64,000 nt of DNA from the sequence record PV419677.1; one strand, given 5' to 3'. The position numbers and the translations under genes were made by a program. The DNA is from a phage. The notes beneath the pieces are model-generated. The model searched no databases, had not been told where the DNA came from, and saw only the letters and a list, made by a program, of their open reading frames with translations. Positions 9,175 to 28,746 of this stretch are shown here, one piece after another; position 1 is the stretch's first letter, and each line of letters begins with the position of its first letter.

Positions 9175-9215
9175 TTTATTCTCCGTTTGTTTATTTGGTA
9201 ACTCAGTATGGAATC

Positions 9216-9245
9216 ATTATGCATCATGACCATCTGGTTGTACAC
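9216..9245 (-). promoter_or_regulatory. sigma70-like early promoter (-35 GTGTAC, -10 CATAAT)
   Basis: repeat cassette; followed by CCATACTGAGTTACC leader. Confidence 0.45.
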
Positions 9246-9254
9246 TACTTTTTA

Positions 9255-9280
9255 AAATAAAAAAGGACCCCGAAGGGTCC
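9255..9280 (-). terminator. intrinsic terminator
   Basis: GGACCC-TTCG-GGGTCC hairpin followed by a U-run on the minus strand, just 3' of the ORF ending at 9288. Confidence 0.6.
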
Positions 9281-9287
9281 TTAGAAT

Positions 9288-10298
9288 TTAACGATAATAG
9301 GAATTGTGGTTGTCAAGATATACCTCCTCAACAAACTTGTCCCAGAACTTCATGTCCACCTTCGCAGGCATACCATTCTTAGCAGCCTGGATGGCCAGAA
9401 CTTCAACTAAATCGACAGTATCTTCAAGAAGTTCTTGAACTTCTTTAAATGGTAATTCACCAGCTTTAATCAGCTTAATGATAGAGGCTTCACGCAATGG
9501 GAATACCAAGTCACCTGTTTGGTAGATTTCCATCAATTGATACCCTGCACGATATGCATGGCTCAGTGCTTTCCAGTCAATACCTTCATTAGCTTCAGCC
9601 TTACGAGCACGTTCACCATATTCGGCGTCGAGTTTATCCAGAGATTGCTTGAGCTCGATTAATGATAGAGTAGTTTGGTATTTACGACCGAGGACAGTAT
9701 AGAACGTTTGAGGACCTGTTTTCTCATGGTTATGAAATACCCATTCGCAGAACTCGTTTTCAGGGAGTCGATGTTTGATATCTTCTACCTTAGTGCGACG
9801 TTGCTTAGTCGAACCGTCTTCTTGATAATCAACCCACTGTTCAGGAATCTGATTAACGATTGCCAGTACACCACGCAGTGCAGCCAATCGAGAACCTTTA
9901 ACACCATATTTGGAAGCTTGCTTACGGACATACCCCAAATAGGCTTTCATGTTAGTTGTATAGAACCGCGAACGGTTGTCTTGAATAAACTTCCATACAT
10001 CTGGTAAATCGGATTTGACTACCAGGTCAGCCGGTGTGTGAATCATATCCAGAGCAACGGTTTCGCCTTCAGCAGCCAGTTTAAAGAAATATTTCAGACT
10101 ATAAAGTTCATGGTCAACATCATCTTTTGTATTTTTGGTAGCCGTGTTATTCGTGTTCAGGTTGGTATGGTTCATCGCGGTTCCGAGCAGGATATCTCGC
10201 GGATGAGGAACAAAGATTTCTTTAAAATCGACATCAGATTCCGGAGTACTTGTTCCATAAAGGTGGGAGCCAAAATATCCCTTCATAACAGTTCTCAT
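9288..10298 (-). CDS. nucleotidyltransferase-fold protein
   Basis: N-terminal GSHLYGTSTPESDVDFKEIFV (GS..DxD signature); ATG at 10298 overlaps the upstream stop; ~336 aa. Confidence 0.6.
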   Translation of the reverse strand: MRTVMKGYFGSHLYGTSTPESDVDFKEIFVPHPRDILLGTAMNHTNLNTNNTATKNTKDDVDHELYSLKYFFKLAAEGETVALDMIHTPADLVVKSDLPDVWKFIQDNRSRFYTTNMKAYLGYVRKQASKYGVKGSRLAALRGVLAIVNQIPEQWVDYQEDGSTKQRRTKVEDIKHRLPENEFCEWVFHNHEKTGPQTFYTVLGRKYQTTLSLIELKQSLDKLDAEYGERARKAEANEGIDWKALSHAYRAGYQLMEIYQTGDLVFPLREASIIKLIKAGELPFKEVQELLEDTVDLVEVLAIQAAKNGMPAKVDMKFWDKFVEEVYLDNHNSYYR

Positions 10299-10747
10299 TT
10301 TTTGTCCTCGAAGTGGATTACAGGGCACATCTTAGATTTACGAGCTTTAATGTATTGAATAACGATGTTTTCTTTAGTTTCCTTTCCTTCACGTTTGGCT
10401 AGAATACGTTGCCATTCCTTTTCTTCTTTACGTAAATCATACCAGGACCATAAATTCATTAGACCATACATTAAACCAAATGCTACCGCCAGAATAAGAG
10501 CCAGTGTAGCTAGTCCTAAAATAAACCCTAAACCTAAACCAACCGGGGTACTTAATACAAAGAAATGCTCTAATACACCAGCCCCCGCGACAGTGAATCC
10601 AAAAACCACACTACCGATAAAAATGGCACAAACAAAACAGGCCCAAACCATTTTCCAAAAGTAAGCACACAATGAGTGTGGACGAGAATGGCGGTCATAA
10701 AATTTATCGTGGAAACGAGCATGCCAAGAGTTTGCATTGATAATCAT
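10295..10747 (-). CDS. membrane protein
   Basis: 150 aa, three hydrophobic segments, charged C-terminus. Confidence 0.6.
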   Translation of the reverse strand: MIINANSWHARFHDKFYDRHSRPHSLCAYFWKMVWACFVCAIFIGSVVFGFTVAGAGVLEHFFVLSTPVGLGLGFILGLATLALILAVAFGLMYGLMNLWSWYDLRKEEKEWQRILAKREGKETKENIVIQYIKARKSKMCPVIHFEDKK

Positions 10748-10757
10748 AATATTTTCC

Positions 10758-11318
10758 TTAAGAGTTCATAGTTGGGATAACAGAGTTCAGATAAGAGACT
10801 AAAACTTTTAGCTCGTCTTTAGTAAATACGACTTCACTTTCACCGTCATGTCTTTGGACAATGGACAACAAGTCACGACCGTTATGTTGAACAACAGTCA
10901 GTTCAGTATTATAATTCAATTCCTCTTCATCGCCTTCAAACGTTTCACTAGAACGAATCAGTGCATCTTGACCTGGGACTTTCCATTCAACTTCTGGTTT
11001 ACATTCTTCCTGGAAGAGTTTGAAAATACAATCAAAGAATTTATCAGAATCGCTAATGCTCAGGCATTCTATACCATTTTCCAGATTAAACCCATTTTCA
11101 TTTTTATAGATATAAGCGTATAGCTCATCGTTAATATCGACAGGAGCACTATGACGACCGTTAAGATATTCATCTTTATCCAAAACCATTAAATCATAAA
11201 GTGGTTTAATATCAGCGATAGTCAGTACGATTTTATCGTCTTCTTGACAAAGCTCAATTGCGTTATTAACTACTTCAGCGGTCAGTTCGCCAAACAATTC
11301 AGTTGTTTCAATAATCAT
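10758..11318 (-). CDS. hypothetical acidic protein
   Basis: ORF track, 186 aa. Confidence 0.6.
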   Translation of the reverse strand: MIIETTELFGELTAEVVNNAIELCQEDDKIVLTIADIKPLYDLMVLDKDEYLNGRHSAPVDINDELYAYIYKNENGFNLENGIECLSISDSDKFFDCIFKLFQEECKPEVEWKVPGQDALIRSSETFEGDEEELNYNTELTVVQHNGRDLLSIVQRHDGESEVVFTKDELKVLVSYLNSVIPTMNS

Positions 11319-11328
11319 TTTCTGTTCC

Positions 11329-11601
11329 TCAACGGTTATGTTTTAAAATACTATAAAGCTCTTCGACTTGGTCTGCATTCAGACAAATCATATCATTTTC
11401 TTGCTGGATTGTGATTCCACCTTTTTCTTCCCAATCTTTAACAAAGATGTCATCGTCGGATTCTTCATCATCTGCTAAAAGGACAATAATACCATCTTCA
11501 GAATTACCACTCGGGTCATATAACATTACAGTTTCCTCGCTAACCATGAAAAGAATAAACCAATTAAAACAGGTCCTACAGCCATTGTTAACCAAGCCCA
11601 A
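11329..11601 (-). CDS. hypothetical acidic protein
   Basis: ORF track, 90 aa. Confidence 0.4.
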   Translation of the reverse strand: MGLVNNGCRTCFNWFILFMVSEETVMLYDPSGNSEDGIIVLLADDEESDDDIFVKDWEEKGGITIQQENDMICLNADQVEELYSILKHNR

Positions 11602-11617
11602 GGTTCAAGATAGTAAA

Positions 11618-11875
11618 TCATCTCATGCTCCTGTGCCAACAATTTCGTGGCTCACGTTTAAAAATTTCATCATGCATTGATTGACAACCAACACAATATA
11701 TCACACCTTTAATCGCTTGTCTCCGCGCTTCAGGAATTTTTTCGTCGCAGTCAAAACAGAATTCAGCAGACTCCCTTTCAACTGCAACTTGTGCTCTCGC
11801 ATGGGTGATAGCGGCTTGGACAACCGCTTCCATCTCTAACTGTTCAGCACCATCTTTTGCAAATCCAACAGCCAT
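11618..11875 (-). CDS. TraR/DksA-family C4 zinc-finger protein
   Basis: CFDCDEKIPEARRQAIKGVIYCVGCQ matches the TraR/DksA CxxC-x17-CxxC finger. Confidence 0.65.
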   Translation of the reverse strand: MAVGFAKDGAEQLEMEAVVQAAITHARAQVAVERESAEFCFDCDEKIPEARRQAIKGVIYCVGCQSMHDEIFKREPRNCWHRSMR

Positions 11876-12057
11876 TATTCTTTCAACTCATTAAGATACT
11901 CAACCAATGCTGCTTTAGAATTCGCTAAATCTCGTTTACACTGCTCTATTCCGGAATATGAATAGCCTTCACAATGTTCAACAGCCAATTCATAAGAGTT
12001 AATTTCAACATCACGAGCGAGTTTGATAATTTTTTCAATCTGTTCAGTAGTTAACAT
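11875..12057 (-). CDS. hypothetical protein
   Basis: ORF track, 60 aa. Confidence 0.4.
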   Translation of the reverse strand: MLTTEQIEKIIKLARDVEINSYELAVEHCEGYSYSGIEQCKRDLANSKAALVEYLNELKE

Positions 12058-12061
12058 AATA

Positions 12062-12298
12062 TCACCAGTATTTTTTGATGGTAGAAATTAATTCTTGGAT
12101 TTGAGTGGTCTTCAGCTTACACCCACACCCCCTTAAGGTGTCTTTAAGGAGCCATGGCTCCTTGAGCTCGTCCTTTTCCATGCGGATTCTATATCCGCGG
12201 TAATCAGCAAATATGCTTCCGTCATCAAATATCTTAATTTCAAGAATATGATTATTGGTTTCATATTCCAATGAAACCATGGTATTTGTAAGTTTCAT
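12062..12298 (-). CDS. hypothetical protein
   Basis: ORF track, 78 aa. Confidence 0.45.
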   Translation of the reverse strand: MKLTNTMVSLEYETNNHILEIKIFDDGSIFADYRGYRIRMEKDELKEPWLLKDTLRGCGCKLKTTQIQELISTIKKYW

Positions 12299-12501
12299 TA
12301 TTCCACCACATATGATAATGAGAAAATTGCTGATGAAAGATGAGTAGCATCTTCTTCACACAGTTCAAATGGAGCTTTCTGTAAGAGTTCAACCACTTCT
12401 TCATCAGTGGCACTGTCCATAAAGATTGCATAATCATTAAGATAGATAACAACCTCATCACCAGTATTAACTGCATTAATCTTGATATTTTTAATTCTCA
12501 T
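12298..12501 (-). CDS. hypothetical acidic protein
   Basis: ORF track, 67 aa; preceded by promoter cassette. Confidence 0.45.
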   Translation of the reverse strand: MRIKNIKINAVNTGDEVVIYLNDYAIFMDSATDEEVVELLQKAPFELCEEDATHLSSAIFSLSYVVE

Positions 12502-12572
12502 TGTGTTCTCCTCAGTAGTTGATGGGATAATAGTACACCCTTTTTATGAGGATGTAAACCCCTTAATGAAAA

Positions 12573-12598
12573 AAGGTCCACCCGAAGGCAGACCTTTT
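12573..12598. terminator. symmetric hairpin flanked by A-run and T-run (possible bidirectional terminator)
   Basis: aaaaGGTCcacccgaaggcaGACCtttt. Confidence 0.4.
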
Positions 12599-12601
12599 GA
12601 A

Positions 12602-12985
12602 TTACTCTAATGTTAACAGATACTTAGTCTGAAAGAAAACTCCAACGATATCGTCCAGAGTCGATTGAATAGCCTTAGGTACAACTTTATAGACTCTTTC
12701 CGAGCTTTTAATCATTTCATCTAAAAACAAAATTGTATCTTTCGGCAAGTCCGAGGCGGACGGTAATGCAGCTTTGTATTGTTTCCCGCTGTAACCTAAC
12801 CATTGCTCACTGAACTGGTCGAGTGGACCTTGGATTTCTGTGAAGTAGAAATCATAAGCTTTATGGCGGGCGTAACTTTTGGTTTCAAGATGGGCGGACT
12901 TAAAATAAGCCAAAGAGACTAACAACCACCCAATATATGAATCCACCTCAGACCCACGACCCGTTACGAAATCATCAAATTTCAT
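12602..12985 (-). CDS. hypothetical protein (rI.-1 position)
   Basis: ORF track, 127 aa; downstream of rI. Confidence 0.5.
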   Translation of the reverse strand: MKFDDFVTGRGSEVDSYIGWLLVSLAYFKSAHLETKSYARHKAYDFYFTEIQGPLDQFSEQWLGYSGKQYKAALPSASDLPKDTILFLDEMIKSSERVYKVVPKAIQSTLDDIVGVFFQTKYLLTLE

Positions 12986-13268
12986 CTTCCAATTTTACCT
13001 TCATTAATTTAGCGTACTCGACTGCAGCAGCCCGGCCATCAATTTGACATGTGATTTCATTTACACATTGACTCTTATTGTTCCATTCAGTTTTAATAAA
13101 AGCCCAAAATTGTTCGGACTGCTCGACGCTGGGTTCTTTGAATTGCGAATAGATTTGCATCGCACTATCTGCATACTGGGTAAATTTACCATCTGTAGCA
13201 GAGGACATATTTGGGCCTAAACAGCCCATTAGTAATAGACTTAGAGAAAGTCCTCGAATAAGGTCCAT
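12975..13268 (-). CDS. rI: lysis inhibition regulator, periplasmic
   Basis: 97 aa; signal-anchor N-terminus; SEQF and Cys-x-Cys pattern resemble T4 RI as recalled; lies next to tk. Confidence 0.65.
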   Translation of the reverse strand: MDLIRGLSLSLLLMGCLGPNMSSATDGKFTQYADSAMQIYSQFKEPSVEQSEQFWAFIKTEWNNKSQCVNEITCQIDGRAAAVEYAKLMKVKLEDEI

Positions 13269-13337
13269 AAGGACTCCTATTGTTGGTCATGATTACGCTT
13301 TGCAGCCTTAACATAGCGGAATACTAGTTAGTAACTG

Positions 13338-13345
13338 TATTTATA
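13338..13345 (-). promoter_or_regulatory. late promoter octamer TATAAATA (minus strand)
   Basis: exact octamer about 70 bp 5' of the rI start. Confidence 0.4.
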
Positions 13346-13616
13346 GACGTTTAAAATTAAAGCAGTACTCTGAAAATAAACCTGCAAAATTACGTTCAAC
13401 CCAGACCCGTTGTTTTGGGCTAGTGACCATTGACAAATAGTATGCTTGTTGCAGGCTTATTCCATTTTTATTAGGACACTCTTTGTTGAACGAGTGATAG
13501 GTACTTGCAACGATTTCGACTTCGCGCTCATACCTTTCCTGGTCCTGCTGCATAGGAACAAAAACCAAAACCAGGAATATCAAAATAGAGATATACGTCC
13601 AAACCTTGTATACCAT
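13341..13616 (-). CDS. small membrane-anchored protein (rI.1 position)
   Basis: 91 aa; hydrophobic N-terminal helix. Confidence 0.5.
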   Translation of the reverse strand: MVYKVWTYISILIFLVLVFVPMQQDQERYEREVEIVASTYHSFNKECPNKNGISLQQAYYLSMVTSPKQRVWVERNFAGLFSEYCFNFKRL

Positions 13617-13623
13617 GCGAACC

Positions 13624-14196
13624 TCAGCTTGTTAATTCGAGCCAATGTTTTCTGCACAAAGATACGTACGATTCATTCCCACCGACCAATACTTGCTCGC
13701 CGTCCTTTACAGCAGCACCGTCGATTACTCGAGCGGTCATGGTTGCTTTCCGGCCGCAATGGCAGACGCCCTTTAATTCAACCAGTTTATCCGAAATAGC
13801 CAGAAGTCTGGCTGAACCGGGAAATAATTGACCCCGAAAATCTGTTCTTAACCCGTAACACATAACGGGGATATTGTAATTATCGACCACTTGAGCTAAC
13901 TGGTCAATTTGCTCTGGTAACAAAAATTGAGCTTCATCGACCAGGACACAATGGATATCCTTTTGAGACTCGGCCCATTTATAGAATTCAAACAGGTTCA
14001 TGTCGGCCGTTACCAGGTTTGCTTCCTGGCTAATACCGATGCGTGATTTAATTTCAGATTCCGAGTCCCGATTATCAATAACAGGTTTTAGCAAAAGCAC
14101 ACTCATTCCACGCTCTTTATAGGAATAAGCTGCAGTCAGCAATGAAGCTGTTTTGCCTGCATTCATTGCTGCGTAATGATAAATTAAACTCGCCAT
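13624..14196 (-). CDS. tk: thymidine kinase
   Basis: 190 aa; P-loop MNAGKTASLL; C-terminal Cys pairs typical of TK. Confidence 0.9.
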   Translation of the reverse strand: MASLIYHYAAMNAGKTASLLTAAYSYKERGMSVLLLKPVIDNRDSESEIKSRIGISQEANLVTADMNLFEFYKWAESQKDIHCVLVDEAQFLLPEQIDQLAQVVDNYNIPVMCYGLRTDFRGQLFPGSARLLAISDKLVELKGVCHCGRKATMTARVIDGAAVKDGEQVLVGGNESYVSLCRKHWLELTS

Positions 14197-14205
14197 ATCA
14201 CCTTC

Positions 14206-14391
14206 TTAAAGCGTATTCACATAAGCTATTAATTCGTTTTCTTTCTCGTCAAATCGACTAGCAAATTCTTCCAGATGGTCGGCATCTATTGGGCCATATT
14301 CATCGTAAAAAGCGTTTGCTTCGGCATGCTCTTCCAAAAGCTCATGGATGAGCTCAAACAATCTACTTTTCTGACTAATACTTAAACTCAT
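14206..14391 (-). CDS. hypothetical acidic protein
   Basis: ORF track, 61 aa. Confidence 0.45.
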   Translation of the reverse strand: MSLSISQKSRLFELIHELLEEHAEANAFYDEYGPIDADHLEEFASRFDEKENELIAYVNTL

Positions 14392-28589: not shown

Positions 28590-28664
28590 TGGTATCCCGC
28601 CCTGGGATCGAACCAGGACCGCAAACTTAGAAGGATCGTATGCTATCCATTACACCAGCGGGAC
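28590..28664 (-). tRNA. tRNA-Arg (anticodon UCU)
   Basis: 75 nt hand-folded cloverleaf: acceptor GTCCCGC/GCGGGAT, T-arm CCTGG-TTCGATC-CCAGG, anticodon loop CTTCTAA, encoded CCA. Confidence 0.7.
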
Positions 28665-28669
28665 ATAGT

Positions 28670-28746
28670 TGGTGACCCAGACCAGATTTGAACTGGTAAC
28701 CTTTCCCTTATGAGGGGACTGCTGCTAACCATTGAGCTACAGGGCC
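28670..28746 (-). tRNA. tRNA with CAU anticodon (Met or Ile2-type)
   Basis: 77 nt: T-arm ACCAG-TTCAAAT-CTGGT, anticodon loop CTCATAA, encoded CCA; D-arm pairing imperfect in my hand fold. Confidence 0.6.

Follow-up and report, generated by a model that had tools for sequence, protein, structure and literature searches.

A YbiI-type zinc-finger protein of the TraR/DksA family in a T4-like phage genome

A small minus-strand gene in a 64,000-nucleotide stretch of phage DNA (sequence record PV419677.1; hereafter the window) encodes a member of the TraR/DksA family of C4 zinc-finger proteins, from the YbiI-type branch. Regulation of RNA polymerase (RNAP) in the manner of TraR appears to be the best explanation of the evidence taken as a whole, with a probability of roughly 0.6, and binding in the secondary channel of the polymerase would most likely be the mechanism. 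The DNA around the gene is 86–94% identical to Gaprivervirus genomes, for example those of SP18, VR7, TH44 and P479. Judged by this similarity, the window is an SP18/VR7-like Gaprivervirus genome, that is, a T4-like genome of the Tevenvirinae.

In the ORF listing of the window, the 85-aa reading frame starts with ATG and occupies 11618..11875 on the minus strand, stop codon included; its product is MAVGFAKDGAEQLEMEAVVQAAITHARAQVAVERESAEFCFDCDEKIPEARRQAIKGVIYCVGCQSMHDEIFKREPRNCWHRSMR. The initial annotation had placed the ORF at exactly these coordinates and had left the strand unnamed. The gene is present in a single copy within the window. Within the mobD-rI region, it falls between a mobD.3-like gene and one for a DUF7189 protein (which carries a DUF2283 annotation in EAWsc9); rI, tk, vs and nrdC.11 are close by. 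The features referred to below are:

11618..11875, minus strand: TraR/DksA-family (YbiI-type) C4 zinc-finger gene, 85 aa, from the ORF, PF01258, PHROG 54, the YbiI and TraR matches in the PDB, the 6n57_M fold match and dN/dS
11846..11866, minus strand: predicted secondary-channel tip motif, codons 4–10, with near-invariant or invariant positions in 57 homologues
11681..11758, minus strand: C4 zinc finger (C40, C43, C61, C64), codons 40–65, from invariant columns
11621..11662, minus strand: C-terminal tail FKREPRNCWHRSMR, codons 72–85, kept in all phage homologues
11875..12057, minus strand: upstream mobD.3-like gene (DUF7438), whose stop overlaps the start of the TraR-like gene (TAATG)
11526..11621, minus strand: downstream 31-aa hydrophobic ORF, whose ATG overlaps the stop of the TraR-like gene (ATGA)
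12530..12559, minus strand: T4-early-type promoter candidate (GTTTAC, spacer, TACTAT), from a pattern match and synteny with SA79RD
12565..12598, minus strand: hairpin followed by a T run, likely the terminator of the preceding unit, from RNA fold energy

Profile searches place the protein in the TraR/DksA family. Pfam PF01258 (zf-dskA_traR) matched residues 38–66 with 36.3 bits (E = 5.8e-9), above its gathering score of 24.9 bits, and PHROG 54, 'DksA-like zinc-finger protein', matched residues 12–77 (E = 2e-20). The top NCBIfam model was NF008243, the YbiI equivalog, which aligned positions 1–70 of its 88 with residues 1–71 of the protein and scored 76.4 bits, short of its cutoff of 96. TIGR02419 (phage/conjugal plasmid C4 zinc-finger, TraR family) reached 52.9 bits where its cutoff is 59.7, and the NCBIfam equivalog for F-plasmid TraR 30.3 bits. 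By these scores the protein resembles both YbiI and TraR and passes as neither. The initial annotation had proposed the TraR/DksA family and had named the lack of any profile hit as a reason to give that idea up; PF01258 passed its curated threshold, and the proposal is further upheld by the structural matches described next.

Among solved structures, the best sequence match was Escherichia coli YbiI (2kgo; NF008243 / PRK11019), with E = 1.2e-9 over residues 1–69; TraR (5w1s/6n57) matched at about 1e-4. An AlphaFold2 model built from 57 homologues (mean pLDDT 77) contains an N-terminal helix (residues 6–29), a zinc ribbon, a short helix (62–68) and a low-confidence tail with a further short helix (80–83). 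Foldseek searches of the PDB with this model returned YbiI first and then RNAP-bound TraR. For 6n57_M the probability was 1.00, with a TM score of 0.62 and an rmsd of 2.8 Å over 62 columns, as calculated on a predicted model with a pLDDT of 77; 5w1s_M was similar. DksA (7khi, 5vsw) shares the PF01258 zinc finger and has D74 and A76 at its coiled-coil tip in the equivalent positions. However, DksA is a protein of 151 aa with a two-helix coiled coil that needs ppGpp, the NCBIfam DksA model gave 13 bits on the window protein, and the Foldseek match was weak (E = 0.6).

A search of 1.84 billion cluster representatives found 404 relatives at E <= 0.001, and their N-termini are of two types: a TraR-type M-x-D-x-x-D-x-A and a YbiI-type M-A-x-G-[FW]-A-x-D-G-A. 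The window protein has both features of the second type, the N-terminal M-A-x-G-[FW]-A-x-D-x-A and a conserved basic C-terminal tail, the latter as a divergent variant, and on sequence criteria it is YbiI-type and not canonical TraR-type. It also shares the IPxARR zinc finger with YbiI. The two proteins are nevertheless only about 35% identical, the equivalog cutoff is not reached, and YbiI is chromosomal whereas the window protein is phage-borne. Their tails differ as well. The phage tail, RNCWHRSMR, is a divergent homologue of the bacterial YbiI tail, NRRGSKDSQLR, and an intermediate form, NRKVWHRSMR (homologue P0069), links the two; TraR has no such tail.

At the N-terminal tip, the window protein carries G-F-A-K-D-G-A in place of the DxxDxA motif, which is critical in TraR (PMC9239242). 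A conserved Asp stands 31 residues ahead of the first Cys in TraR-type and YbiI-type representatives alike, and this equal spacing puts YbiI-type D8 and A10 at the positions of TraR D6 and A8, with an aromatic residue at TraR D3. The spacing is 32 in the window protein and 31 and 33 in its 84-aa and 86-aa relatives, respectively, the length variation being located in the poorly conserved loop 30–39. We infer that D8 corresponds to TraR D6 and that the extra residue belongs in this loop. A MAFFT alignment and the ungapped HMMER register, neither of which puts D8 on TraR D6, were set aside for the register given by the Asp-to-Cys spacing. In the register adopted, the tip would retain D6 and A8 of TraR and have D3 replaced by Phe (F5), and the first Asp of DxxDxA is Phe or Trp throughout the YbiI-type branch.

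Conservation across the 57 homologues follows the residues that matter in TraR. C40, C43, I47, P48, R51, R52, G57, C61, C64 and Q65 are invariant, and D8 and A10 of the tip, as well as E49, are at least 90% conserved. The initial annotation had quoted the peptide CFDCDEKIPEARRQAIKGVIYCVGCQ (residues 40–65, a CxxC-17-CxxC arrangement) as a C4 finger with a conserved Arg-rich stretch. Both elements hold up: all four Cys are invariant, and so is the Arg pair, which is equivalent to TraR R48/R49 within a segment where I47-P48-E49-A50-R51-R52 corresponds to TraR I44-P45-E46-A47-R48-R49. In TraR, R48 and R49 contact the β' rim helices and β'Si3 (PMC9239242), and roles have been described for R48, R49 and E46 (PMC9239242, PMC6970531). 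F-plasmid TraR (5w1s, 6n57; TIGR02419 / NF010268) and the window protein share the overall arrangement of N-terminal helix, C4 zinc-finger globule and C-terminal segment, with TraR R48/R49, E46, D6 and A8 matched by R51/R52, E49, D8 and A10. The differences are an identity of 25–31%, the Phe at the D3 position, two extra residues at the N-terminus, about 12 extra residues in the tail, and a C-terminal helix that is predicted to be shorter (62–68 in the AlphaFold2 model, compared to 58–73 in TraR; PMC6970531). It should also be noted that H25 (HAR; RAR in bacterial YbiI) co-occurs across homologues with the phage-type C-W-H of the tail (C79, W80, H81), and that the intermediate P0069 has H25 together with V-W-H. 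This co-occurrence may reflect packing of the tail on the N-terminal helix, or a second metal site; confidence in the tail of the AlphaFold2 model is too low to judge such packing.

The ORF is a real gene under strong purifying selection. In codon alignments with the orthologues from PBECO4, Marfa, Entb_45 and PEi26, dN/dS was 0.05–0.13 where dS could be estimated, with synonymous sites close to saturation. Over residues 1–12 (MAVGFAKDGAEQ), each pair showed no nonsynonymous differences and 3–8 synonymous ones. Plus-strand ORFs that overlap the gene are short, and the codon-position substitution pattern tracks the minus-strand frame. By tblastn, 776 phage records contain a match, and in about 167 the identity is at least 60%; among the latter are other genera of the Tevenvirinae (Kanagawavirus), Marfavirus as a further T4-like genus, and the jumbo-phage Asteriusvirus (PBECO4) group. 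In PBECO4 itself, the intact ORF (1201–1458, 65% identity) is unannotated and lies between two annotated hypothetical genes.

Two observations could be taken as signs that the frame arose by chance or is a pseudogene in decay, without function: the gene is missing from T4 (PMC4319498), and it is truncated in Mosigvirus SA79RD. They do show that the gene is dispensable in evolutionary terms. However, low dN/dS values across genera and phage families, a full-length frame that is intact in hundreds of phage records, a score above the curated Pfam threshold and translational coupling to both neighbours all speak against a chance or decaying frame, and the conservation analysis refutes it; we regard its probability as negligible.

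The coupling is visible at both ends of the gene, within an unbroken minus-strand gene array. Besides the overlapping start and stop codons listed above, the Shine-Dalgarno sequence of the 31-aa ORF, AGGAG, lies inside codons 81–83 of the TraR-like gene. This small ORF (MIYYLEPWAWLTMAVGPVLIGLFFSWLARKL) overlaps the start of the next gene with its own 3' end too (TAATG). It is near-identical in SA79RD, is annotated in phages P8 and UPEC01 and is absent from the annotation of some other records; no family match was found for it.

Since AGGAG and ATGA both fall in codons 81–86, we considered whether conservation of the tail is a mere by-product of the overlapping downstream ORF. This is a partial answer. 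The nearest annotated CDS beyond the gene in PBECO4 begins about 75 nt further on, with no annotated overlap, and the tail is kept with synonymous changes, so the constraint on the tail acts on the protein. For example, the window phage and PBECO4 code Ser83 differently, one of them using AGC and the other TCT. We also considered an independent function of the tail. Some T4-like phages have, at the syntenic position, a 54-aa ORF (phrog_25948; SA79RD 1459–1623; also P0048, P0050, P0058, P0060 and P0063) in which the tail is perfectly conserved. Its last 28 residues are the TraR-like C-terminus, its first ~26 look like those at the beginning of the DUF7189 gene, which lies two genes further down, and it has lost two of the four Cys. 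From codon 58 on, the SA79RD DNA and the window agree at about 97% identity; before that point they are unrelated, and the breakpoint falls at ~11704 in the window. This alignment takes away the argument for an independent function: the 54-aa ORFs are recent truncation chimeras and give no evidence of selection on the tail.

On the coding strand, the sequence ahead of the gene has a single sizeable intergenic gap, at 12502–12601. Within it, GTTTACATCC...TACTAT at 12559–12530 is the sole exact match to GTTTAC...TAnnnT on this strand in 9200–14300, and the TraR-like gene is the fourth gene in a packed unit behind this, the only nearby T4-early-type promoter candidate. The hairpin at 12565..12598 has a fold energy of -16.7 kcal/mol (z = -3.3), and none of 200 shuffled sequences folds as well. 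Read along the minus strand, the order in 12530–12598 is hairpin, then promoter candidate, followed by a strong Shine-Dalgarno sequence before a mobD.5-like gene. In SA79RD, the syntenic position carries annotations for a terminator and an early promoter. A T4-specific pattern search found no MotA box (middle) and no late TATAAATA motif directly upstream of the TraR-like gene. A generic σ70 promoter scan was set aside because it did no better than on shuffled sequence (20 promoters found, 16.6 expected). Given the early-type promoter candidate, the synteny with SA79RD and the lack of a MotA or late motif at that position, early transcription of the TraR-like gene is a reasonable inference, in line with the early-infection role suggested in the initial annotation.

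At the other end, a strong intrinsic-terminator-like hairpin (9263–9282, minus strand; AAGGACCC TTCG GGGTCCTT, with a run of T behind it) comes immediately after an nrdC.11-like nucleotidyltransferase gene and is probably the end of the transcription unit. The predicted unit also holds a 186-aa mobD.1-like neighbour (10758–11318, minus strand) with matches to Pfam T4_y05I_N (1.6e-36) and T4_y05I_C (1.6e-19), 'y05I-like putative transcription factor', which would make it a second putative transcription-related protein there. Rfam searches of the window matched two tRNAs only and no RNA near the TraR-like gene; ARAGORN and Rfam agree on these adjacent tRNA-Arg(tct) and tRNA-Met(cat) genes at 28590–28746 (minus strand), far fewer than the eight tRNAs of T4.

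The annotation itself is not new. Phage UPEC01 encodes a 100% identical protein whose annotation reads 'TraR family zinc finger protein'; the names used in other records are 'TraR family C-4 type zinc finger protein' and 'dksA: DksA C4-type domain-containing protein'. A table published in 2006 lists a Pfam dksA/traR match for a T4-like phage (PMC1524935), and DksA/TraR proteins in T4-like phages are on record from both 2006 and 2015. As the identical protein is already so annotated in GenBank, the family assignment is an ordinary finding. Other names in the region evidently have been mis-propagated and are untrustworthy: in the P8 and UPEC01 records, small mobD.x ORFs are named 'molybdopterin-guanine dinucleotide biosynthesis protein MobD', a y05I-like gene 'thymidine kinase' and a 78-aa ORF 'valyl-tRNA synthetase modifier'.

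If the protein acts like TraR, host σ70 RNA polymerase would transcribe the gene early, from the promoter candidate at about 12559–12530, as the fourth in a translationally coupled string of small genes. The product would bind host RNA polymerase with no need of either DNA or ppGpp, as TraR and lambda Orf73 do. Its N-terminal helix (residues 6–29) would enter the secondary channel, bringing D8 and A10 of the tip near the active site, while the zinc-finger globule would sit on the β' rim helices and β'Si3 through R51, R52 and E49, and the C-terminal segment would point toward the β lobe and Si1. Promoter-specific, ppGpp-independent effects on initiation would follow, and the outcome may be that polymerase and resources are freed for the phage.

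Work on phage homologues indirectly favors this TraR-like reading. All five phage TraR homologues that have been tested bound RNAP, inhibited rRNA and ribosomal protein promoters and complemented a dksA deletion (PMC9239242). Lambda Orf73, P2 Orf82, VHML Orf8 and VP882 Orf61 (PMC9239242) are, like the window protein, small phage-encoded members of the TraR family found among small early or regulatory genes. They are TraR-type proteins of about 73 aa from temperate phages, whereas the window protein is YbiI-type and comes from a strictly lytic T4-like phage. An incomplete tip need not abolish activity: two of the five active homologues had an incomplete DxxDxA and inhibited rRNA promoters more weakly, and P2 Orf82, which lacks the full motif as the window protein does, binds RNAP (PMC9239242). 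For the bacterial branch, overexpressed E. coli YbiI has been reported, as data not shown, to rescue dksA auxotrophy (PMC2613031). A literature search for functional work on YbiI and on the DksA/TraR proteins of T4-like phages returned nothing beyond that study.

Alternatively, the protein could be a YbiI-type zinc-finger protein whose role does not involve RNAP at all, for instance having a metal- or stress-related function of the kind proposed for chromosomal ybiI, or reaching another host or phage partner through its conserved tail. YbiI, not TraR, is its closest characterised relative by sequence, and the authors of the YbiI study favor iron metabolism for that protein (PMC2613031). A C4 finger alone is no guarantee of DksA-like function if DxxDxA or the C-terminal helix is missing, and not every C4 'TraR/DksA homologue' works like DksA (PMC9239242); here the tip is non-canonical, and the tail, whether RNCWHRSMR or the bacterial NRRGSKDSQLR, has no counterpart in TraR. 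However, the strongest constraint falls exactly on D8/A10 and R51/R52, which matter in TraR, and the predicted fold superposes on RNAP-bound TraR. The reported rescue of a dksA deletion by overexpressed YbiI (PMC2613031) also fits poorly with an RNAP-independent role, and an iron-regulon accessory protein would be of no evident use to a lytic phage. We consider this alternative unlikely.

The protein could also bind the secondary channel and act there in a way unlike TraR, for instance by simply blocking the channel, so that DksA/ppGpp or Gre factors are excluded, or by tuning early and middle promoters of the phage instead of inhibiting those for rRNA. T4-like phages remodel host RNAP with other factors, which we count in favor of such an action, as we do the aromatic residue in place of the first Asp and the two extra N-terminal residues. 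The C-terminal helix, which rotates the β lobe and Si1 in TraR (PMC6970531), appears shortened in the model, and in Rnk there is already a protein that binds in the secondary channel and does nothing there except compete with other factors (PMC9239242). On the other hand, the homologues with an incomplete DxxDxA still inhibited rRNA promoters, albeit more weakly (PMC9239242), and we think it very unlikely that the protein departs from TraR in this way.

A broader version of this idea concerns the YbiI-type branch as a whole. The TraR N-terminus already comes within 4.3 Å of the catalytic Mg (PMC6970531), and the tip of the window protein has two more N-terminal residues than TraR. The longer, invariant Gly-aromatic tip and a tail under protein-level selection suggest a possible action on RNAP unlike that of TraR or DksA, for example by extending to the active site or by closing off the channel. 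The YbiI-type branch might then be a distinct class of secondary-channel factor, with another mode of action on RNAP or a tail that recruits a second partner, and its users would be strictly lytic phages instead of temperate phages and plasmids. We regard such a distinct class as improbable, and TraR-like regulation of RNAP remains the reading we prefer.

The practical value of the result is small, since the call is correct and repeats an existing annotation. The non-canonical tip and conserved tail of the YbiI-type branch are mildly interesting. The phage TraR homologues studied so far are all TraR-type proteins of temperate phages, and the YbiI-type proteins that lytic T4-like and jumbo coliphages encode apparently lie outside that set. 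Should these proteins prove to act on RNA polymerase, the already elaborate takeover of host transcription by T4-like phages would gain a further layer, and the uncharacterised bacterial YbiI family would be given a function too.
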